Shown here: in pieces, positions 7,792 to 30,179 of the stretch | How the letters are laid out: every line of letters begins with the position of its first letter | Numbering within the stretch: position 1 is the first letter of the stretch | Assembly (NCBI GenBank): GCA_965221125.1 | Contig: CBDCRW010000005.1 | Location: 96,001 to 160,000, forward strand | DNA length: 64,000 bases | Direction of reading: 5' to 3' | Source: Alphaproteobacteria bacterium | GTDB taxonomy: Bacteria; Pseudomonadota; Alphaproteobacteria; UBA828 | The notes under the pieces: generated by a model | What the model was told of the DNA's origin: nothing | The model's database searches: none | Seen by the model: the letters and a program-made list of their open reading frames with translations, nothing else | Made by a program: the position numbers and the translations under genes

Positions 7792-9347
7792 TGCGAGAGA
7801 CCGAGTATTCCGAAGAGTCAGTCAAGCTTTCCGGCTCCATCGGCAGTTTCGTTCGTTCCCGGCAGGGATATTACGGCCGGGAGTTTGAGAAGATTCAGGT
7901 AGCGGAACAATTTCCGTGGTCGTGGAACACCATGGCCGCTCTCGCAGGTCCCTTGTGGGGTGCATCCCGCGGTCTGTGGGGGTACTTCTGGATGTTCCTG
8001 ATCCTCGAAGTACTCGCGCTTGTTCAGATCGGCAGGGGTTGGTGGGGCGACCTTGGAGCCGACAAGCTCGCCCGGCTGGAGAGACTCACCCGCAAGTCGG
8101 ACGAGTTCATGGCGAAGTACGATGCGGCCCTGCTCGCCGGTGATCCCGACGCGGAATCGTACCTCAATCGCGCGGAGAACCTCGATAAGATCGCGGTCCA
8201 GGTCGCAGAAGAAGCAGCGCTCGCGGCCGAGGGGGCCACGACGATTCTTCTCGTCGGCATCGCTCTGTTGATCGGCTTGCGCCTGATCCAGGGCTTCTAC
8301 GCCAACCTGCGCTACGAGAAACAGTATCTGAGCTGGAGAGCGAATCCCTCCAGGACAGCCGCCGGCGTGAGCTGGGTACGGGCCGGTCTCGGCAGCCTGC
8401 TGTGGCTGGCGATCGTGCCGCTCACCCTCTACCGCTTCACCGTCGGCAAGATCGACCCCGAGCTCGAACCCTACGTTGCCGGCGTTCCCATCGAGAAAGG
8501 GACCTATTACGCGCCCATGTCCGATTGGCTGGACGCAGGCTTCGACTGGCTGTCGGTCGAAGGGGCCGGCGTCTTCGACGGCGTCGTCGCGGCGATCAGC
8601 GCAGTCGTGGGCGCGCTGGAAACGGTGCTGGTCGACGCGCCGTGGCCGGTGGTCATGACGGTCATCGTCGTTGTCGCATGGCGGCTGGCCGGTCCTCGGG
8701 TCGCGGTGTTTACCGCCGCCGCGCTCGCCTACCTGGCGCTGTTCGGCCTGTGGGAGACGAGCATGGTGACAGTCGCCTTGCTCGGCGCCGCCGCATTCCT
8801 GTGCGTGCTGTTCGGGATACCGCTCGGGATCTGGTTCGGCAAGAACCAGAGGGCTTACAACGCAGCCCAGCCGGTGCTGGACTTCATGCAGACGATGCCG
8901 GCGTTCGTCTACCTGATCCCGATCATCGCCTTCTTCGGCACGGGCAAGCCGCCGGGGGTGCTGGCAACATTGGTGTTCGGGATGCCGCCCGTCATACGGC
9001 TGACGGCGCTTGGCATCCGCGGCGTACCGGAGAGCACCAAGGAGGCCGCTATCGCCTTCGGCTGCAATCGCTGGACGCTGCTGAAGGACGTGGAGATACC
9101 GCTCGCGCTGCCGTCCATCATGACCGGGATCAACCAGACCATCCTGATGTGTCTCTCGATGGTTGTGATCGCGTCGCTTATCGGTGCGAAGGGCCTGGGC
9201 CAGGACGTGCTTATCGCGCTCCAGTACGCGGCCAAGGGGCAGGGGATGCTCGCCGGTCTCGCGATCCTGTTCTGCGCGATGGTCATCGACCGCATCATCC
9301 AGGGGCACTACAAGCGCTCCGCCTCGCGCCAGGTGCCCCGGGGATAG
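7791..9347 (+). CDS. Betaine/proline ABC transporter permease (ProW-like) with N-terminal extension
   Basis: 'PVLDFMQTMPAFVYLIP', an EAA motif and 'GINQTILMCLSMVVIASLIGAKGLG'. Confidence 0.93.
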   Translation: MRETEYSEESVKLSGSIGSFVRSRQGYYGREFEKIQVAEQFPWSWNTMAALAGPLWGASRGLWGYFWMFLILEVLALVQIGRGWWGDLGADKLARLERLTRKSDEFMAKYDAALLAGDPDAESYLNRAENLDKIAVQVAEEAALAAEGATTILLVGIALLIGLRLIQGFYANLRYEKQYLSWRANPSRTAAGVSWVRAGLGSLLWLAIVPLTLYRFTVGKIDPELEPYVAGVPIEKGTYYAPMSDWLDAGFDWLSVEGAGVFDGVVAAISAVVGALETVLVDAPWPVVMTVIVVVAWRLAGPRVAVFTAAALAYLALFGLWETSMVTVALLGAAAFLCVLFGIPLGIWFGKNQRAYNAAQPVLDFMQTMPAFVYLIPIIAFFGTGKPPGVLATLVFGMPPVIRLTALGIRGVPESTKEAAIAFGCNRWTLLKDVEIPLALPSIMTGINQTILMCLSMVVIASLIGAKGLGQDVLIALQYAAKGQGMLAGLAILFCAMVIDRIIQGHYKRSASRQVPRG

Positions 9348-21112: not shown

Positions 21113-22267
21113 TCATCCCGTGACCTCGGCGATCCTGCTCGCGATGCGATTGGCGGCCGCTTTTACGGGGTCGTTGGCCAAGTGCGCGTAGCGCGAGGTC
21201 GTCGTCACCCTGTTGTGGCCAAGGAGCTTGCCGATCATCGGAAGCCCTTCACCGACCAGCAGACCGCCGCTGGCAAAGCTGTGCCTGAGGTCATGGATTC
21301 GCAGATTTTCGATCCCGGCCCGGTCGAGAATGCGGCGCCACGAGTCGTGCAGGTAGGCGATGTGCTTGCCACCCCTGATGCCCGGCAACACCCACGGACT
21401 GCCGTTTGCGCGCGGGATGCCCCGCAGTACCGCGATCGCCGGATCGCCCAGGTGCACCACCTTCGAACCGGTCTTGCTCTCCGCCAACCTGAGCTCGCCT
21501 GCATCGAGATCGACATGCTCCCACCGCAGGCTCATGATCTCCCCGCTCCGGCACCCGGTCAGCATCAGCAAGCGTATCGCGGCGATCGCCACCGGGGAGA
21601 CGAAGCCCTCATCCTCCGCGTCACGCAGCGCCGCGCCGAGACGGCGGTACTCGTCGTCCGAGAGAAACCGCTCCCGCTTGTGCTCCGGATACTTCTTGAC
21701 GTGCCGGCACGGATTGACGCCCTCGGGCCGCATCTCCCAGACCTCGGCGAGCGTCAGCATGCGCGAGAGCACGCTCAGCGTCCGGTTGGCATGGCCGGGG
21801 ACGTCGCGCATCTCGTGGTGAAGAGCGGCGACGTCGTTCTTGCCGAGATTGCCGACCCGGCGCTTGCCGAGCCGGGGAAGGATGCGGTTGTCGATGATCT
21901 TGCGGTAGAGCCGCGCGGTGCCGGGCTTCAGATGACCAGGGGCGTACTCGTCCATGAAGCGCTTGGCGAGGTCTGCCACGGTGGCGCCTCTCTTCCCACG
22001 GGGAATCTTCCCTTCGAGATCGCGGCCGGTCTTCGCAAGAGTGACAATCTCTGCTGCCTTTGCCCGCGCGGCGGCGGGCGTGATGGGGCCGTGGGGTCCG
22101 ATGGTGACTTTGACGGATCGTCCCTCGTGTCGGTACTTGACGATGTAGACCTTGCGCCCCGTCGGATGGACGCGGACCCCGAAGCCTGTGATGGCGTCGT
22201 CCCAGAGAATTCTCTCCCGCTCTTCGGGGACGAGGGCATCGACGGTTCTCTTGGTGATTTTCGGCAA
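21113..22267 (-). CDS. Tyrosine recombinase/integrase with arm-binding domain
   Basis: '(M)PKITKRTVDAL...WDDAITGFGVRV', 'LTGCRSGE', 'KTG', 'HDLRHSFAS' and 'LLGH...TSRYAH'. A TTG start at 22267 is assumed; an alternative ATG at 22288 lies inside the IS66 end. Confidence 0.95.
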   Translation of the reverse strand: MPKITKRTVDALVPEERERILWDDAITGFGVRVHPTGRKVYIVKYRHEGRSVKVTIGPHGPITPAAARAKAAEIVTLAKTGRDLEGKIPRGKRGATVADLAKRFMDEYAPGHLKPGTARLYRKIIDNRILPRLGKRRVGNLGKNDVAALHHEMRDVPGHANRTLSVLSRMLTLAEVWEMRPEGVNPCRHVKKYPEHKRERFLSDDEYRRLGAALRDAEDEGFVSPVAIAAIRLLMLTGCRSGEIMSLRWEHVDLDAGELRLAESKTGSKVVHLGDPAIAVLRGIPRANGSPWVLPGIRGGKHIAYLHDSWRRILDRAGIENLRIHDLRHSFASGGLLVGEGLPMIGKLLGHNRVTTTSRYAHLANDPVKAAANRIASRIAEVTG

Positions 22268-22389
22268 GGTTCGTAATCCTTCGGTCATAGAGTGATGGCA
22301 TGTTGGGCGTTGACATCAACGACCGCGCCTGGAGACGCGCTCGGTAGGAATTGCTGGTAACGAATTTCGCCATGCGCTAGCGTGAGTGC

Positions 22390-23014
22390 ATGGCGATTCG
22401 CGACGCGTCTGCCGCGGCACACCTCTCGCTGGTCGAGGGGTCTGACGGTCCATGGTCTTTTCCTCCTGATAATCCGTCCTCCGAAGAGCCGGACTGGCGA
22501 TCCCTGTCCGAGCGGGCGCACGCCCGTGCGGAGAGCGAGGGGGCGCGGGCAGACGCGGCTGAAGCGCGCATCCAGGAACTGCTCGGCGATATCCGTCGGC
22601 TCCGCGCTTCTTTGCGCAAAACGGGAGCAGCCGGAAGTACGGGGGAGCCGCTGCCGAGGGGTGCCCGTGGAGCGCACAAAGCGCCGCGAAGATTGCGACG
22701 GAACGACACCATCGGCTCGCTGCATGTGGAGAACGCCGAACTGCGCGAGGAGGCCACAACGCTGCGCAAGGCGGCGGGTGCGGCACAGACGTCGCTCTCC
22801 AGGAAAGACGCCCGGCTGCTCAAGGCCCGGGAACGTTCGCAGGCCCAAAGGAGCACGATCGAGGAGCTGCGCCGGCAGGTCCGTTCCCTGGAAAGGCAGG
22901 TCGCCCGGCAGAGCCGCGACCTGGAGGAGGCGGAAAGCCGCAGGCAGACTATCCGTGATCTCTCCCGCGAGAACGCGGAACTCCGTGGAGCACTCAGGGA
23001 TTGGCGCGACCAGG
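22390..23014 (+). pseudogene. 5' coiled-coil part of the IS66 transposase, split by insertion
   Basis: Heptad-rich ORF. It joins in frame with 27641-29301 when 23015-27640 is removed (...RDWRDQ|EATIEWF...). Confidence 0.85.
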
Positions 23015-23383
23015 TGTTGTTTTCCGGTCTAGCCGGATAGAAGCACGGGTTTTTTTCTCACTTTGATTGGTTGGTGGATTTCCCGGGATGGTGGCCGAGT
23101 GCGGGAAGGACGCTGCCTGCGGCATTTTTTTGATCCTCAGCAGAATCCTCATTGCTGTTGAAGCTGTGGAGCGGTGGGCGCGAGATCGGCGAGTGTGGTC
23201 AGGCGGTGGGCAAGCGCCAGCTTGTCCACGGGCTGTCCACACGGTCCGCAGGACGCCGATCGGTCCGCAGGACGCGTCCACGGCTCCACAGCTTGGCGGC
23301 GGCGGGGAGCGTCCGTAATCTTGGCCTCTCACTGAACGACAAAGAGAGGCCCGGGGGACGGAACTCCCGCCGGGCCAGGGCCG

Positions 23384-24019
23384 GTGCAGCTTCGCTACGA
23401 AACGGGGCTCACCAGCGAGGAATACGTTAAGACCGAGGCGTGGCGCGACGCAAGGCTTGAGCGCTGCCCGAATCACCCGCACGGCGGATGTTCTGTGGCA
23501 AGCCACGGCACCTACGAGCGGAAGACCCCGCCCGGCGCAAGGGTTCCTCGCTGGTATTGCCGTGAGAGCCATACGACCATCGGCCTGCTGGCCGACTGTC
23601 TGGCGGCGCGGCTGCCGGGCACGCTCGATGCGCTGGAAGCGGTTGTTGTCGTGGCGGAGGAGGCCGGCAGCCTGGAGGAGGCAGCGGACGAGGTGCGCTG
23701 CCCCGAGGACGAGGACGCCATCGAGCTTCCCGGCGCCGTGCGTTGGATCCGCCGCAGGCTGAAGCTTGTGCACGACGCGCTTGTGCGCGTCATCGGCCTG
23801 ATCCCCGACCTGCTCGCGGGCTGCGCGCCCACCATGAGCGCGGTGCGCGAGCGTCTGAAGAGCGACAGCGCGTTGATGGAACTGCGCGGCCTGGTCGCCG
23901 GGCAGCTCCGGACGCTACCCGCGCCTCTGGGCTTCCAACCCCACGGCATCGACGTGGGGAATCGCAAACCGCAGTTCCAACAACGGGCGGGGCCGGACCC
24001 GCCGCCGGAGAGTTCGTAG
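23384..24019 (+). CDS. Zn-ribbon/HTH transposon accessory protein (DUF6431-like)
   Basis: 'CPNHPHGGC...HGTYERK...RWYCRESHTTIGLLADCL' and a downstream helical segment 'AVRWIRRRL'. Confidence 0.65.
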   Translation: MQLRYETGLTSEEYVKTEAWRDARLERCPNHPHGGCSVASHGTYERKTPPGARVPRWYCRESHTTIGLLADCLAARLPGTLDALEAVVVVAEEAGSLEEAADEVRCPEDEDAIELPGAVRWIRRRLKLVHDALVRVIGLIPDLLAGCAPTMSAVRERLKSDSALMELRGLVAGQLRTLPAPLGFQPHGIDVGNRKPQFQQRAGPDPPPESS

Positions 24020-24064
24020 CGTGACGATCCCGGGGCCAGGGAGTCCCTGAACGAGGATCGCACC

Positions 24065-25393
24065 ATGAACAGCTCAGACGACGACCTTCGCCAACAGATC
24101 GCGCTCTTCCGATACGACGTCATCGCCGATCTGGTGCATCTGCCCGTGGGTGCACCGGGTGCCGGCGCGATGATGCGCGCCAAAGCCGAGAAGACCTACA
24201 CGATCCCCGGAACCACCAGGACCCGGGTCGCCGCCGAGACCATGCGGCGCTGGATCAAGGACTACCGCTACGGCGGCTTCGACGCGCTCTACCCCAAGCC
24301 CCGCACCGACCGGGGGAAGCCCCGGCGGCTGCCGCCCGAGGTCGCCGAGCGCCTCATCGCGCTGAAGACCGAGAACGACGCATTGTCGGTTCGCGCCATC
24401 ATCCAGAAGGTCAAGGAGGAGGGTATCGACCACCCGCTCGCCTCGTCCACCGTGCACCGCCTCTTCAGCCGCGAGGGCCTGTTCGACAAGAAGCCGCCCG
24501 ACGGGGCGGATCGCCGCCGCTTCGCCTTCCGGCATGCCGGCGAGATGTGGATGAGCGACGTCATGCACGGACCCAAGGTCCGGCACGGCCGAACCCGGCG
24601 CAAGACCTACCTGATCGCCTTCATCGACGACGCCACCCGCGTCATCCCGTTCGCCGCCTTCGCCATGGCGGAGAACACTGCGGCGTTCCTGCCGGTGTTC
24701 AAGGACGCGCTGATCCGGCGCGGCCTCCCGGCCCGCTTGTACGTCGACAACGGAAGCGCCTACCGCTCCCGTCATCTCTCCCTGGTCTGCGCCAGGCTCG
24801 GCGTTGCGTTGATTCACGCAAGGGCGTTCCAGCCAGCGGGAAAGGGTAAGATCGAGCGCTTCTTCCGCACCCTCCGGGCCGGCTGGCTCCGCCACCTCGG
24901 CGATGACGTCGACAGCCTGGAGGCGCTCAACCGCAGCCTCTGGGCCTGGATCGAGGGGGAGTATCACAACAGCCCGCATCGTGGCCTCGACGAGGGGCGC
25001 ACCCCGCTTGAGCAGTGGGCGCTGGCCTCGGCCGGCGTGCGCTATCCCGACGCCACCATGGACCTCGACGATCTGTTCCTCTTCGAGGCCAGGCGCCGTG
25101 TCTACAAGGACCGCACCGTTAGTCTGAACGGCCGCGTCTACGAGGTCGACGCCCTCCTGGTGGGTCAGAACGTCATCCTGCGCTACGACCCGGCCGCGCC
25201 GCCCTCGCGCCCTCTCGACGTGGTCCATGACGGCAAGCCGGCCGGCAAGGCCAGCCCTCTCGACGCCTACGCCAATACCGCCGTCAGGCGCACCTACCCG
25301 GCCAGGGAGATCGAGGCCGAAGATCCGGCGCCCGAGCCTCCGCCCTCGCCGCTGGCCATGCGCAACCTCAAGGACAAGAAGGAGGACGAGTGA
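24065..25393 (+). CDS. DDE transposase/integrase (rve core, HTH N-terminus, Mu-transposase-like C-terminus)
   Basis: 'WMSDVMHGP...IAFIDDATR...LYVDNGSAY...GKGKIERFFRTLR...YHNSPHRGL'. Confidence 0.95.
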   Translation: MNSSDDDLRQQIALFRYDVIADLVHLPVGAPGAGAMMRAKAEKTYTIPGTTRTRVAAETMRRWIKDYRYGGFDALYPKPRTDRGKPRRLPPEVAERLIALKTENDALSVRAIIQKVKEEGIDHPLASSTVHRLFSREGLFDKKPPDGADRRRFAFRHAGEMWMSDVMHGPKVRHGRTRRKTYLIAFIDDATRVIPFAAFAMAENTAAFLPVFKDALIRRGLPARLYVDNGSAYRSRHLSLVCARLGVALIHARAFQPAGKGKIERFFRTLRAGWLRHLGDDVDSLEALNRSLWAWIEGEYHNSPHRGLDEGRTPLEQWALASAGVRYPDATMDLDDLFLFEARRRVYKDRTVSLNGRVYEVDALLVGQNVILRYDPAAPPSRPLDVVHDGKPAGKASPLDAYANTAVRRTYPAREIEAEDPAPEPPPSPLAMRNLKDKKEDE

Positions 25394-26193
25394 TGTACCT
25401 GCGCCACTTCGCCTTCACCCGCCTGCCCTTCGAGACCCCGGCAGAGACCGACGAGCTGTTCGAGTCCAACGCGCGCCGCGAGGCCGAGGCCAGGCTCGGC
25501 CACCTCATCGACCTGCGCGGCATCGGCCTGCTCACCGGCGAGGTGGGCTCCGGCAAGACCACCGTGTGCCGGCATCTGACCGCGCAGCTTCATCCAGGCC
25601 TCTACCGGGTCCACTACGTCTCGCTGACCACGGGCAACGTGCTCGACATGTACAAGGCGATCGCGTGGGAGATCGGCCTGCCCATCGAGCGCTCCCGCGC
25701 CTCGGCCTATCAGGCCATCCGAAACGAGATCTCCCGCCTCGTCACCGAGGCCAAGCAGCTGCCGGTCCTCGTCATCGACGAGGCCCATCATCTGCGCAAC
25801 GACGTCCTTGAGGACCTGCGCCTGCTCACCAACTTCGCCATGGATGCAGAGCAGCGCCTGTGCCTCGTCCTCGTCGGTCTGACCGAGCTCAGGCGCCGCC
25901 TGGCCATGGCCATGCACGAATCCCTCAGCCAGCGCCTCGTCGTCCGCCACCACCTGAGCGGTCTCGACCGCGACGAGGTCGACGCTTACATCAAGCACCG
26001 CCTCAGGCTCGCGGGATGCGAACTGCCGCTGTTCGAAGAGCCCGCCGTCGAGGCCCTGTTCCAGGGCGCGCGCGGCCTGCCGCGCCAGATCAACCGCATC
26101 GCCCACTACGCGCTCTCCGCCGCCGCTCTCGACGAGGCGAGGACCGTCAGTGCCGACCACCTGCAGCACGCGCTCGAGGAACTGCGGCCATGA
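25393..26193 (+). CDS. ExeA/TnsC/MuB-like AAA+ ATPase
   Basis: 'LLTGEVGSGKTT', 'VLVIDEAHHL', 'VLVGLTEL', 'SLSQRL' and 'GLPRQINRI'. Coupled to the transposase stop. Confidence 0.93.
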   Translation: MYLRHFAFTRLPFETPAETDELFESNARREAEARLGHLIDLRGIGLLTGEVGSGKTTVCRHLTAQLHPGLYRVHYVSLTTGNVLDMYKAIAWEIGLPIERSRASAYQAIRNEISRLVTEAKQLPVLVIDEAHHLRNDVLEDLRLLTNFAMDAEQRLCLVLVGLTELRRRLAMAMHESLSQRLVVRHHLSGLDRDEVDAYIKHRLRLAGCELPLFEEPAVEALFQGARGLPRQINRIAHYALSAAALDEARTVSADHLQHALEELRP

Positions 26194-27230
26194 CCGGCTT
26201 CCCGACCCGCGCCCCGATCGAGCTGGAGGAGCGGCCGCGCGAGCAGCAATGGCTGGTGGACACGCTATGGGGCGAGCAGGCCGTCGGCATCGTCGGCGGC
26301 GAGCCGAAGTGCGGCAAGTCCATCCTGGCGCTGGACCTCGCGGTCGCAGTCGCCGCCGGCGTCCCATGCCTGCGGCACTTCGCCCCGGCCCGGCCTGGCC
26401 CGGTCCTGCTGTTCGCCGCAGAAGACGCCGGCCACCTCGTGCGCAAGCGCCTGCAGGGGATCGCCCGCGCCGCAGGCGCCCGCTTCGAGACCCTCGACAT
26501 CGCCGTCATCGACGTGCCCACACTGCGCCTCGACCATCTCGACGACCGCCGCCGCCTGCAGCAGACCGTGGAGCGCATCGCACCGCGCCTCGTGGTCCTC
26601 GACCCCCTGGTCCGCCTGCACGGCGTGGACGAGAACACGGTTGCGGACGTCGCCCCGATCCTCGGCTTCCTGCGCGACCTGCAACGCCGCTTCGAGACCG
26701 CCGTCCTCCTCGTCCACCACGCCCGCAAGAGCGGGGCCACGAGGCCGGGGCAGGCCCTGCGGGGCAGCAGTGAGCTGCACGCCTGGGGGGACTCGAACCT
26801 CTACCTGCGCCGCCGGGACCGGCAGACCCTCATGACCGTCGAGCATCGCGCCGCACGCGGTCTCGACGACATCGAGATCGAGCTCAAGGAAGACGGAGAG
26901 GAGCCCTCCTTCCGGCTGCGCCAGCCGCCCACGGCCGGCGGCGGGGCGCCTCAGCCCGAAACACCCGAATGCCGCGTTCTCAAGGCGCTCGCCGACGCCG
27001 GGGCGCCGCTCTCGCAACGCCAGATCCGGGAACGCGCCGCGACCCGGCACAAGACCGTCGGCGTAATCTTGCAAAAGCTCGTCCAGGAGGGTCGCGTCGC
27101 GCGCAACGCCGAGGGCGGCTACAGCGTCGTCGCAGGCGCAGCGGACAAGCGGGCGGCGGCCGCCGCCGCCAACGGCAGCAGTCGGCCGCAGGCCCCGCGG
27201 TTCCCGGAGCCCGGTTCCGCCAACGCCTAG
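26190..27230 (+). CDS. RepA-like (AAA_25, RecA/SF4-type) helicase with C-terminal winged helix
   Basis: 'WLVDTLW...GGEPKCGKS...AAED...VVLDPL...DEN...LLVHHARK...LRGSSELHAWGD', then wHTH 'LSQRQIRERA...LQKLVQEGRV'. ATGA overlap with the ATPase gene. Confidence 0.9.
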   Translation: MTGFPTRAPIELEERPREQQWLVDTLWGEQAVGIVGGEPKCGKSILALDLAVAVAAGVPCLRHFAPARPGPVLLFAAEDAGHLVRKRLQGIARAAGARFETLDIAVIDVPTLRLDHLDDRRRLQQTVERIAPRLVVLDPLVRLHGVDENTVADVAPILGFLRDLQRRFETAVLLVHHARKSGATRPGQALRGSSELHAWGDSNLYLRRRDRQTLMTVEHRAARGLDDIEIELKEDGEEPSFRLRQPPTAGGGAPQPETPECRVLKALADAGAPLSQRQIRERAATRHKTVGVILQKLVQEGRVARNAEGGYSVVAGAADKRAAAAAANGSSRPQAPRFPEPGSANA

Positions 27231-27640
27231 GGGTTCGAGCCGGAACCGCCGTCGGGAACCACCCTTCCCCAACGGTCCGGAAGGCGCTGCGCCTCCACCG
27301 GGATACTACGTCAGGTGAGCGGCCAGTCCGTGGCCGGAAGCTTGCTTCAGGCCATGGCAGCACTTCGTCGTGTGGACGGTGGCGAGTCACCCGAAGGGCC
27401 GAAGCGAAGCGCAGGAGCGGCGCAGCCGCTTGACGCGCCGACGGCCGCGCGACACCTCGTCAGCTCTCCTCAAGCACCAGTCCAAACCTCAATCAGACAG
27501 CGACCCCGGACCGCCCGCAGAGACCATGAGCTCCTACGCTTCGATCCGGAAAAGACCGAGCAATCTGGGAAATCAGGGCAGCGATCACGTCAAATAATCT
27601 GGGAGATTCGGCGTCAAATAACGTGCGAAACAACACCAGG

Positions 27641-29301
27641 AGGCCACCATCGAATGGTTCGACGGCCGCGTCAGCGAGCTGGAATGTGCCCTGGACGAGG
27701 CCGCAGACGAGAGGCGGTGGATGGAGGCCGATCTTGCCGATCGCCCTCTGTTGCCCGTGGCCTTCGAACGACTGCGCACCCAGGAGAAGACGATCCAATC
27801 GCTCACCGAGAAGATCCAGTCCCTCTCCGAGAAAAACGAGCGGTTGCGGGCCCGGATCACGGACCTGGAGGCGACGGTTGCCAGGCACCGTGCGAGCAGG
27901 GCCGTGCTGTCCAAGGCACTGTTCGGCAGCAAGAGCGAGCAGCAGGAGAAGCCCAGCACGGGGCGCAAGCGCGGCCAGCAGCGCGGCGCTCCCGGCCACG
28001 GCCGTACCCCGCGGCCCGGGCTCGAGGAGCGCACCGACAAGCGCAACCCGCCCAAGGACGCGCGCGCGTGCTCCTGTTGCGGCAAGCCCTATGTCGCCAA
28101 CGGCGAGCACGTCTCGACCATCATCGAGATCGAGGTCAAGGCCCACAAACGCAGGATCGTCCGCCCCCGCTGGCGCCGGGGTTGCGACTGCCCGTCCTCG
28201 CCCCTGGAAGTGACGGCGCCCCCGCCGCTGCGCCTGTTCCCCAGGACACCCTACGGAACCAGCGTGTGGGCGAGCTTCCTCTACGAGCGCTACGCCTCTC
28301 TGCGGCCCCTCAGCCAGGTCTCCGCGTGGCTGTCCGGCCTCGGTCTGCCGATCGCTGCCGGCACCCTCGCCGGCAGCGTGGAGCGCTTCATTCCTGTGTT
28401 CGAGCCCGTGGCGGACGCGATCCTCGCGCACCAGAACCAACAGGCGGTCCGTCACGGCGACGAGACCGGCTGGCGTATCCAGTCGCTGCGCGAGATCGGC
28501 CGCTCCAACCGCGCGTGGCTGTGGAACTCGGTCAGCGAGGATGCGGTCTACTTCCACTGCGACCCCTCGCGCTCGGCCGAGGCCGCGAAGACGTTGTTCG
28601 GCGATACCGCCGTCGTCGTGTTCGTGGTCTGCGACCGCCTCTCCAGCTACAAGAAGATGGCGCGCGACCTCGACGGCAAGGTGATCCTCTGCTTCTGCTG
28701 GGTCCATCAACGGCGGGACTTCATCCAATGCGCGGCCAGCCACAATCGGCTGACGGACTGGTGCCAGAGTTGGATCGAGCGCATCGCCTCGATCTACAGC
28801 CTGAACAAGGCGCGGCTGCGGCATTACGACCCCGCTCTGGAGCGCCAGACGCCACAGTTCGACGCCGCACAGAGAGAGTTGGAGAAGGCCGTCGACAAGC
28901 TGTTCGCGGACGCAAAAGCGGAACTGGCCGGCCTGCCGGCCGGCTCGCGCGAGGCCAAGCCGCTGCGCTCGCTGCTCAACCACCGCGAGGGGTTGTGCGT
29001 CTTCGTCGACAACCCGCAGGTGCCCATGGACAATAACGCTGCCGAGCGGGCGTTCAGGAAAGCGGTCATAGGACGACGCCTCAGCTTCGGATCCGACAGC
29101 GAGGACGGCGCGAAGTTCACGGCAATCATGTACTCCGTCGTCGGCACCCTCGCCATGAACGGCATCGATGTCCGGCGCTGGCTGGAGGCATGGCTGAAGA
29201 CCTGCGCGAAGAATGGCGGCAAACCGCCGGACGACTTGTCGCCCTGGCTGCCGTGGTCGATGAGCGAGAAGCGAAGGCGCAAGTTCACGGCGCCGGGATG
29301 A
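27641..29301 (+). CDS. IS66-family transposase (TnpC-like), 3' part
   Basis: 'LFGSKSEQ', 'GQQRGAPGHGR', Zn finger 'CSCCG', 'HGDETGW', 'CWVHQRRDF' and 'DNNAAERAFRKAVIGRRLSFGS'. Confidence 0.93.
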
Positions 29302-30179
29302 CCGGCGCCATCGAGTGCCGCTACTACGGGCGCGACTTCACTTCGGAAGAGATGGCGCTGCTGCGCGCGCTCATCGCCGCCGACCCGCCCCTCAACCGCC
29401 ATGCCCTGTCCAAGGAGTTCTGCCGGCGCATCGGCTGGGTCAAGCCTGACGGCGGGCTCAAGGACATGATGGCCAGGGTCACCATGCTGGCCATGCACAA
29501 GGACGGTCTGATCACCCTGCCGCCGCCGAGATGGAAACCGGGTCCGCCAAAGCCCATCGTCTTCGGGCCTGACACCGAGCCGCCGCTCTTCCCCGCCCCC
29601 ACTACCCTCGATGACGTTCGCCCGCTCGAGATGCGCACCGTCGTGCGCAACACCCGGGAGGGCAAGCTCTGGAACGAGTTCGTCGCCCGCTACCACTACC
29701 TCGGCTTCAAGACCCTGGTCGGTGCCCAGATGCGCTACGCCGTCCACGGCCGCGACGGCTGGCCGCTCGCCATGCTCGGCTTCTCCACCGCCGCCTGGAA
29801 GCTCGCGCCGCGCGACAGCTTCATCGGGTGGACGCCCGAGAAGCGCGAGAAAAACCTGCCGCTGGTGGTCGACAACCCGCGTTTCCTCATCCTGCCCTGG
29901 ATCAAGATCCCAAACCTCGGCTCGCACATCCTCGCCATCGTCCGCCGCCGCCTGCCCGAGGATTGGATCGAGCGCTACAACACCACGCCCGTGCTCGTCG
30001 AGACCTTCGTCCAGAGGCCGCCCTACACCGGCGCCGTCTACAGGGCCTCGGGATGGATCCATGTCGGAACCACACAGGGGCGCGGCCGCTATGACAGATA
30101 CTCCCAAAGGGCCCTGCCGCAGAAAGACATCTGGCTCCGGCCCCTCCGAAAAGACTGGAAACGAGCACTCAACCGATGA
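29298..30179 (+). CDS. DUF4338 (DruA-like) domain protein, IS66 passenger
   Basis: 'RYYGRDFT', 'LWNEFVARYHYLGFKTLVGAQMRY', 'NPRFLILPW...NLGSHIL' and 'LVETFV...YTGAVYRASGWIHVGTTQGRG'. Confidence 0.88.
   Translation: MTGAIECRYYGRDFTSEEMALLRALIAADPPLNRHALSKEFCRRIGWVKPDGGLKDMMARVTMLAMHKDGLITLPPPRWKPGPPKPIVFGPDTEPPLFPAPTTLDDVRPLEMRTVVRNTREGKLWNEFVARYHYLGFKTLVGAQMRYAVHGRDGWPLAMLGFSTAAWKLAPRDSFIGWTPEKREKNLPLVVDNPRFLILPWIKIPNLGSHILAIVRRRLPEDWIERYNTTPVLVETFVQRPPYTGAVYRASGWIHVGTTQGRGRYDRYSQRALPQKDIWLRPLRKDWKRALNR

Follow-up and report, generated by a model that had tools for sequence, protein, structure and literature searches.

Within a window of 64,000 nucleotides (nt) from an alphaproteobacterial genome (GTDB lineage UBA828; assembly GCA_965221125.1, contig CBDCRW010000005.1, positions 96,001 to 160,000 of the forward strand) lies a transposon of 4,621 bp, at window positions 23015–27635, bounded by TG..CA ends with an 8-bp terminal inverted repeat. 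Between these ends stand four co-oriented genes, which we call O1, O2, O3 and O4. The second and third resemble parts of the phage Mu and Tn7 transposition systems; the fourth encodes a predicted helicase of the plasmid type, and it is the distribution of this gene, and of the DNA that accompanies it, that concerns us here. Unless a contig or locus is named, coordinates refer to the window. The genes and the two non-coding features behind them are as follows.

23384–24019, plus strand: O1, 211 amino acids (aa), a CCHC zinc-ribbon protein with a helical C-terminal half (invariant CCHC residues; AlphaFold2 model)
24065–25393, plus strand: O2, 442 aa, a DDE transposase with HTH_32, rve and Mu-transpos_C domains (Pfam)
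25393–26193, plus strand: O3, 266 aa, an AAA+ ATPase of the MuB/TniB kind (AAA_22, 95 bits)
26190–27230, plus strand: O4, 346 aa, a predicted RepA-like helicase domain of RecA fold with a C-terminal winged helix (AAA_25, 127 bits)
27199–27260, no strand assigned: a palindromic hexamer array over the O4 stop codon, a putative O4 binding or loading site
27308–27454, plus strand: a conserved, structured non-coding motif of ~145 nt that moved with O4 (84–91% identity to family 2a, see below)

Judged by profile and modelled fold, O4 is a fusion of a helicase resembling RSF1010 RepA with a winged helix. Its AAA_25 score compares with a Pfam cut-off of 27 bits, and the winged helix is recognized by Pfam as MarR-like. 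A profile built from nine homologs retrieved RSF1010 RepA from the PDB with an E-value of 5.5e-13, and Foldseek, given an AlphaFold2 model of O4 with a predicted local distance difference test (pLDDT) score of 77, placed the RepA structures 1nlf and 1g8y on top, with template-modelling scores of 0.71–0.73 on the target. The Walker A sequence GGEPKCGKS corresponds to residues 36–44, and the predicted recognition helix lies around ATRHKTVG, at residue 284. Walker A, Walker B and the other helicase motifs are invariant in 39 O4 homologs, down to 44% identity, with K43, D138, H176/H177 and R191 among the invariant residues.

Relatives of O4 are numerous. At least 7,882 of 8,000 scored candidates matched at E ≤0.001, under no source name other than ‘AAA family ATPase’, and the best 120 are 69–92% identical to it. 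One database protein, P0004 (597 aa), contains AAA_22 and AAA_25 together, and is either a read-through or a true O3–O4 fusion. The context of these relatives became apparent from genome G001, whose 68 O4 matches include two score classes of 30 and 34. Among three matches checked per class, the first class proved to be the backbone of the window, O1-O2-O3 between multi-site TG..CA ends (hereafter family 1), followed by O4. The second is a different element of 4,421 bp, here called family 2a. Its ORF1′ (ORF, open reading frame) encodes a CxxC..CxxC protein with a helix-turn-helix. An rve transposase with 26% identity to O2 is the product of ORF2′, and an AAA_22 ATPase with 28% identity to O3 that of ORF3′; ORF4′, by comparison, is 80% identical to O4. 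At the DNA level, too, O4 and about 220 bp 3′ of it are ~80% identical between families 1 and 2a, set against the 26–28% of the other proteins.

A metagenome scan with an O4 alignment confirmed 568 relatives, from which the best 80 (48–88% identity) were taken; 71 of these have at least 300 bp of upstream sequence. In 68 of the 71, O4 lies directly behind a transposition AAA+ gene: 64 belong to family 2, and four (L135, L142, L189 and L193) are IS21-type elements with O4 directly after istB. The remaining three are two truncated O4 copies (L119 and L120) and a locus with 388 bp upstream only (L127). A DDE transposase gene is present as well in 45 of the 49 loci with at least 1.5 kb upstream, and all three genes are found in 36 of the 41 with at least 3 kb. 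As a rule, the AAA+ gene and O4 are translationally coupled. In a further genome, G002, O4 stands 3′ of a second family-2 transposase type (family 2b) in three of three copies; when five genomes were searched with this transposase, only G002 was recovered. Of the IS21-type carriers (L189, 93–3866; L193; L142, 1–2310; L135), L189 encodes an IstA with a Mu-transpos_C_2 domain and an IstB that scores 258 bits against IstB_IS21, and a small Cys-rich ORF lies ahead of these genes, as it does in L193.

A tblastn search of 72,556 plasmid records with O4 gave no match at E 1e-5, neither O4 nor the family-2 transposase could be confirmed in a viral contig collection, and none of the PADLOC defence models matched O4. 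Carriers belong to the Alpha- and Gammaproteobacteria, Acidobacteriota, Spirochaetota and other phyla. Among 301 genomes across the class, three had an O4 match, the window's own genome included, a yield too sparse for a taxon survey.

In the window, the hexamer array at the 3′ end of O4 consists of GGTTCC at 27199 and 27213, GGTTCG at 27232, and GGAACC at 27242 and 27255. An inverted array of short repeats, directly after O4 or across its stop codon, recurs on all three backbones (family 1, family 2 and IS21), although the repeated word differs: family 2a has GTTACC twice and GGTAAC three times, many family-2b elements have GTTTCC three times and GGAAAC three times, and the IS21 carriers are similar. 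An array with two or more TTCC and, after them, two or more GGAA was found at 44 of 68 O4 3′ ends, as compared with 6 of 1,561 control windows, and an exact 6-mer array test was positive for 18 of the 68 and for 5 of 1,757 controls. A strict scan for ungapped hairpins found 17 of the 68, because the arrays have bulges. The repeated word goes with the predicted recognition helix of O4, ATRHKTVG being paired with GGTTCC in eight of eight cases and ATRPATV with GTTACC in four of four. The repeats also encode the C-terminal tail of O4 (..RFPEPGS.. versus ..LPKTVTAS..), which varies with them; since the tail is a translation of the repeats and changes along, it is the DNA rather than the tail that seems to be the selected feature.

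The ~145-nt motif lies further downstream. Its identity between families 1 and 2a exceeds the ~80% of the coding part, and its predicted structure comprises 49 pairs, with 94.8% of cells paired. Changes on both sides of a pair were counted at 7 pairs, against 3.4 in shuffled and 1–2 in slid controls, the structure having come from the same sequences, which flatters the controls. A 23-nt insertion in one member falls within a hairpin loop, and a GCGAAGC mini-hairpin is contained in the motif. An Rfam search of 22900–27750 at E up to 1 gave no match to the motif, and a chance-level hit elsewhere in the element only. Weak matches to a covariance model of the motif (R1) occur at the right place in family 2b (24.1 bits in L141 and 21.8 bits in L190), and we treat the motif as limited to the clade formed by families 1 and 2a.

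These comparisons show O4 to have moved as a cassette composed of the gene, the 3′ hexamer array and the 145-nt structured motif. In a quick tree of O4, eight sequences hosted by family 1 and two from family 2a form one clade with a support of 99, which under midpoint rooting is placed among family-2b and family-2c sequences. Coupling this root with the spread of O4 across backbones, we read the pattern as family 1 having probably captured the cassette from an element similar to family 2a.

The family-1 backbone itself is widespread across many phyla. A scan with O2, using one genome per species, confirmed 445 relatives; the best 80, representing 79 loci, come from Alpha- and Gammaproteobacteria, Acidobacteriota, Spirochaetota, Verrucomicrobiota, Desulfobacterota and one Anoxybacillus, and the order O1-O2-O3 is kept down to ~36–47% identity. 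A locus was called O4-less when at least 1.1 kb of DNA past O3 contained no O4. By this measure, 8 of the 79 loci have O4 after the family-1 genes, 48 lack it and 23 are too short to tell, giving 8 carriers among 56 informative loci. Element length differs between the kinds: O4-less elements measure 3.3–3.5 kb, O4 carriers 4.4 kb, and a third kind 4.2–4.3 kb. In this third kind a primase-like protein with DUF3991 and Toprim_2 domains occupies the fourth slot, after O3 (L050, 8090–8938; L046, ~8141–9067; L064, ~8186–9079). In the short kind the slot is filled by an ORF of 68–76 aa, often overlapping the O3 stop codon, whose C-terminus carries QLxLF, acidic residues and ..PF, and which belongs to no Pfam family (L019, 8117–8323; L014, 8132–8353; L037, 8151–8363; and others). 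QLxLF corresponds to the beta-clamp-binding consensus as given in PMC4549789.

Among 35 non-redundant family-1 rows, the slot contains the Toprim protein in 8, the small ORF in 11 (6 with exact QLxLF) and O4 in 5, and is unclear in 11. A quick tree of the transposases distributes the small-ORF type over both main branches and confines the Toprim type essentially to one. O4 carriers fall into two separate, well-supported groups on this tree, which implies at least two gains or swaps of O4 within family 1. In genomes G004 and G005 the O4-less elements are multi-copy and there is no O4 match at E 1e-10, so that the family-1 backbone evidently multiplies without O4.

These results bear on whether O4 is simply a passenger that serves another function, such as defence or addiction, or is left over from a plasmid, and settled in a permissive slot. 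A preliminary description of this DNA, made from its letters and open reading frames, had reckoned that homologs mostly lacking the helicase would mark it as passive cargo. Most family-1 relatives do lack O4 and still multiply, their slot accepts different genes, and the transposase tree requires that O4 was gained or replaced at least twice. Passive cargo does not follow from this, however, because the O4 family is near-exclusive to transposons, sits behind the AAA+ gene on three backbones and travels with its own repeat array. A passenger would hardly be expected in the same position behind a transposition AAA+ gene at 68 of 71 loci; moreover, O4 matches no PADLOC defence model, was found neither in the plasmid records nor in the viral contig collection, and resides in elements that have no other cargo. 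We consider a passenger very improbable.

The core genes are of familiar kinds. The O2 stop codon overlaps the O3 start (TGATG) and the O3 stop codon the O4 start (ATGA), so O2, O3 and O4 are translationally coupled; O1 and O2 are separated by 45 nt. In O2, the rve (41.9 bits) and Mu-transpos_C (31.6 bits) matches are both over the Pfam cut-offs, the best-fitting phage family is phrog_310 (Mu transposase; PHROG, E 3e-49), and the closest solved structure is TnsB (E 5e-7). O3 has no IstB_IS21 domain match in Pfam and scores 20.8 bits against TniB, for a cut-off of 22.4; it matches phrog_296, a ‘DNA transposition protein’ (MuB), at E 1e-29 and the PADLOC model of TnsC at E 9.5e-4, and its closest solved structure is MuB (8xvb, E 1e-3). 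Pfam detected no TnsA or resolvase domain in the four genes between the ends.

O1 is more difficult to place. Residues C28, C36, H41 and C59 are invariant among 28 homologs, which points to a CCHC zinc site. Neither Pfam nor NCBIfam gave a match to O1, and its AlphaFold2 model (pLDDT 84.8) retrieved nothing from the PDB by fold better than E 0.09. A relationship to DUF6431 was suggested by adjoining clusters of a protein atlas, in which 29–57% of members carry that domain, and is a lead only: no DUF6431 match appeared when eight ORF1 proteins were scanned directly with Pfam at E up to 10. Homology to the family-2 ORF1 was not shown, with a profile–profile probability of 0.6% and only a local C..C..H..Y.RKP.G motif in common.

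The ends of the element and the gene that it interrupts are laid out as follows.

22390–23014, plus strand: 5′ part of the interrupted host gene, an IS66-family transposase-like ORF (in-frame join)
23010–23014, no strand: left copy of the target-site duplication, CCAGG (present only once in the empty-site paralog)
23015–23094, plus strand: left end, with terminal TGTTGTTT and three putative transposase-binding repeats (~23015–23036, 23049–23069 and 23072–23094)
23077–23084: GATTTCCC of the left end, inside the left-end repeat region
27558–27635, minus strand: right end, with terminal AAACAACA and three putative transposase-binding repeats (~27612–27635, 27588–27611 and 27558–27581)
27636–27640, no strand: right copy of the target-site duplication, CCAGG
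27641–29301, plus strand: 3′ part of the interrupted IS66-family ORF (DDE_Tnp_IS66, 184.5 bits on 27721–29301)

The first letters of the element, TGTTGTTT, and its last, AAACAACA, form the 8-bp terminal inverted repeat, and CCAGG on either flank is the 5-bp target-site duplication. GATTTCCC occurs subterminally in both ends, 63 nt in from the left terminus and 62 nt from the right; the right end has in addition TTATTTGACG twice and TCCCAGATT twice, as direct repeats. In relatives, whose ends were set by comparing copy with copy, the termini open with TGTTGTTTCCC... and each end carries about three repeats of ~20 bp. When the element and one CCAGG are removed, 22390–23014 and 27641–29301 fuse into a single in-frame ORF with a DDE_Tnp_IS66 domain. 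The corresponding empty site exists in the same genome, as an intact paralog of the target ORF (C5:690431–692716) that is identical (100%) over 2,286 bp spanning the joint. In two public runs, moreover, contigs join 23008 to 27635, skipping 4,626 bases, with a cut 5 bases further on fitting equally; these joints are the empty site. Beside the interrupted gene lie a protein with a DruA (Druantia) domain (29190–30179, plus strand; 123.6 bits) and a tyrosine integrase (21113–22288, minus strand), and the element may be inside a mobile or defence island.

The host genome (4.58 Mb in 7 contigs, 69% G+C) contains 20 copies of the element, with O4 inside the ends of all 20. Seventeen copies are intact and 100% identical across 4,621 bp; the other three are split by an insertion sequence (IS) of ~1.45 kb (C5:758404–759851, C6:194952–196404 and C7:276233–277685; also L197, 241–1437), whose 398-aa product is a transposase of the Mutator family (Transposase_mut, 407 bits) and which we take to be IS256-like. 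A perfect 5-bp duplication flanks 15 of the 20 copies, with 15 different 5-mers, and three more have a match of 4 bases. The last two, on contig C4 (671960–676580 and 716887–721507), are inverted to each other and have exchanged the flanks CGGGG and CCCTC, pointing to an inversion of ~45 kb between them. Such a pattern fits both homologous recombination and intramolecular replicative inversion, and does not decide the mechanism. Copies show no orientation bias with respect to GC skew (6 of 12 informative copies are co-oriented). The element is an active, autonomous DDE transposon, and we regard the structural identification of the element and its parts as practically certain. Contigs X17 and X18, from RNA libraries, span portions of the element or its relatives and are not evidence of transcription.

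Further family-1 arrangements were also encountered. At L062 (285–1648) a family-1 transposase gene runs into O4 residues 125–313, an apparent deletion derivative from which O3 and the start of O4 are gone. L069 (397–8120) and L068 (5426–12959) each have two nearby, opposed family-1 copies, arranged head to head in the former and tail to tail in the latter.

Most of what the preliminary description had claimed about the element was borne out. Its boundaries, TG...CA termini, 8-bp inverted repeat, CCAGG duplication and subterminal repeats are all present where it had placed them, and the restoration of the host ORF in frame is confirmed by the join and by the identical intact paralog. All of its gene set is there (zinc ribbon, DDE transposase, AAA+ ATPase and AAA_25 helicase with a winged helix, the last three coupled), four genes with neither a resolvase nor a TnsA domain. 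Its view of a compact Mu/Tn7-style transposon agrees with the Mu C-terminal DDE transposase, the AAA+ partner, the multi-site TG..CA ends and the 5-bp duplication, and its RepA-like helicase within the ends with the AAA_25, profile and fold matches and with all 20 copies. The suggestion that O1 is a TniQ-like target selector found no support in Pfam, NCBIfam or the fold search. Its overall interpretation thus holds for a transposon with a helicase and fails for O1 as TniQ, and it needs amending in that the helicase is optional for the family-1 backbone yet tied to transposition systems.

The diversity of insertion sites also bears on a second explanation, in which O4 would be a regulator or target chooser comparable to TnsE or TniQ, its winged helix occupying the array as an operator or immunity mark and its ATPase serving as a switch. 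A winged helix next to an inverted repeat array does resemble a repressor with its operator, helix and hexamer co-vary, and Mu/Tn7-type systems frequently add a third or fourth targeting protein (PMC8649781). However, the complete set of helicase motifs and the RepA fold have been conserved; the array is downstream of the operon and not at a promoter; neither the 15 different duplications nor the 6 of 12 copies aligned with GC skew betray a site or orientation preference; and the other occupants of the slot are of the replication type. We therefore think it unlikely that O4 acts chiefly as a regulator or target chooser.

The reading that we prefer, tentatively and at a little less than an even chance, is that O4 and its array constitute a portable initiator-helicase and iteron cassette, which couples transposition to replication driven by the element. 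The winged helix of O4 would bind the hexamer array beside its own gene; the ring helicase would be loaded there and open the DNA within the element; and host primase and polymerase would go on to replicate the element, whether in situ or after its excision as a circle. Copying of this kind would multiply the substrate of transposition independently of host initiation factors, so that O4 would boost transposition or broaden host range, while the transposition chemistry itself would work without it. A replication role of O4 is something that we only infer, from the RepA fold, the gene-plus-iteron layout and the portability of the cassette between unrelated partners, a portability that an initiator-helicase would explain. 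P4 alpha and SaPI Rep are precedents, in that each is a helicase with a terminal DNA-binding domain and recognizes iterons beside its own gene. The high copy number of carriers (20 here, and 30 and 34 O4 matches in G001) fits this reading, and the alternative occupants of the family-1 slot, the Toprim protein and the QLxLF peptide, share the replication theme.

In a bolder form of the cassette model, the element would be a built-in replicon: O4 would fire an origin at the hexamer palindrome, circles or in-place copies would replicate before integration, the AAA+ ATPase would double as a DnaC-like loader, and the Toprim protein and clamp peptide would answer the same need on elements that carry them. 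This form we consider doubtful.

Several observations count against an initiator-helicase cassette. Where the pairing of recognition helix and hexamer is concerned, the sequences are related and include few independent switches; in the window's array, the DNA that separates the two arms of hexamers is not distinctly rich in A+T; and an array at the 3′ end of an operon also occupies the place of a plain hairpin terminator. With 48 of 56 informative loci lacking it, O4 is dispensable for the family-1 backbone, as the multi-copy O4-less elements of G004 and G005 likewise attest. Family 2, whose observed members all carry O4, was sampled through O4, an approach that would miss O4-less members, so that ‘core’ status of O4 in that family is unsupported, and the direction of donation rests on the midpoint root and the O4 spread. 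No direct sign of replication was seen: the joints listed in four public runs include none from the right end to the left end, in contig-level data to which rare forms are invisible, and overlapping ends, as expected of a circular contig, occurred at 0 of 159 loci.

A third explanation places O4 at the ends of the element and not at an internal site. The AAA+ protein (O3, its family-2 counterpart or IstB) would load O4 onto the forked strand-transfer intermediate, much as DnaC loads DnaB, replacing the restart primosome of the host, and the array would serve autoregulation or termination. Both copy-out-paste-in and Mu-type routes require a replication step (10.1101/2023.06.07.543989), which leaves room for loading at strand-transfer forks. 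O4 is found directly behind the AAA+ gene, and usually coupled to it, on three backbones; IstB is a close paralogue of DnaC (PMC11208146); a MuA/TnsB-like O2 with neither TnsA nor a resolvase fits a replicative route; and the Toprim and QLxLF alternatives would equally suggest replisome recruitment. It is awkward for a specific protein contact, however, that O4 has been swapped among AAA+ partners that are ~28% identical or are IstB, and its movement with its own repeats points to a site inside the element rather than to the ends. On balance we judge this mode of loading to be improbable.

Self-copying DDE transposons of the Mu, Tn3, IS21 and IS3 types are taught as borrowing the replication machinery of the host. 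Here, by contrast, a plasmid-type helicase with its own repeats is the near-constant companion of a transposition ATPase gene on three backbones. How the replication step of transposition starts thus becomes a testable question, as does whether host range and copy number are limited by it, and the cassette may help to drive IS bursts in environmental and symbiont genomes. If the built-in replicon were true, it would represent a general and unnoticed layer, in which transposons bring their own replisome part, across at least three transposon families and many phyla; a compact, self-priming and host-independent transposon would also interest those who build genetic tools. The parts are known in kind, namely a Mu/Tn7-style core and a RepA-type helicase, and their combination appears to be new, in that we found no description of it. 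The full texts searched, which excluded supplements, ISfinder and TnCentral, contained no description of a helicase–iteron cassette, of its having reached a second family and IS21, or of the slot alternatives, and neither the two four-gene IS-like families nor the IS21 variant were found in the searchable literature.

Among known systems, the element shares with phage Mu a Mu C-terminal DDE transposase (phrog_310), an AAA+ partner nearest MuB (phrog_296), multi-site TG..CA ends and a 5-bp duplication. It differs in its size of 4.6 kb, in having four genes and no phage genes, and in adding an upstream CCHC zinc-ribbon gene and a RepA-type helicase of its own with a repeat array. Mu depends on host restart proteins for the loading of DnaB. 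Tn7, Tn5053 and Tn552 are likewise comparable, in that TnsB is the closest solved relative of O2 and an AAA+ partner gene is present, and each end of the element has an array of ~20-bp sites, in keeping with the published layout of these transposons (PMC8649781). Unlike them, it lacks TniQ/TnsD, TnsA, a resolvase and cargo, its AAA+ protein scores under the TniB cut-off, and it uses no attachment site, its 15 perfect duplications being 15 different 5-mers.

Two IS families come into question for the core. IS481 provides the NCBI transposase model nearest to both families (201.9 bits for O2 and 106–109 bits for family-2 transposases), although all scores are under its cut-off of 224 bits. Elements of the IS481 family are ~1 kb long with one gene, whereas the present element has four genes and a Mu C-terminal domain. 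IS21 has the same two-gene core of DDE transposase and AAA+ protein, and some IS21-type elements carry the O4 cassette behind istB; however, O2 scores 43 bits against the IS21 model, for a cut-off of 160, and O3 is of the AAA_22 type rather than an IstB.

For the helicase, the closest parallels are RSF1010 RepA and Rep–iteron modules. O4 has the predicted RepA fold and motifs, and short repeats in two opposed sets lie beside its gene. It differs in residing inside a DDE transposon, with no primase or RepC-type partner, and in its absence from the 72,556 plasmid records; an origin function of its array is putative. Finally, the IS-excision enhancer IEE, a PrimPol-helicase that acts on copy-out-paste-in IS, offers a parallel as a primase- or helicase-type protein connected with the step of DDE transposition at which replication occurs (10.1101/2023.06.07.543989). 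In contrast to O4, IEE works in trans from a gene located outside the IS, combines an archaeo-eukaryotic primase with a UvsW-like helicase fold, and promotes excision rather than spread.

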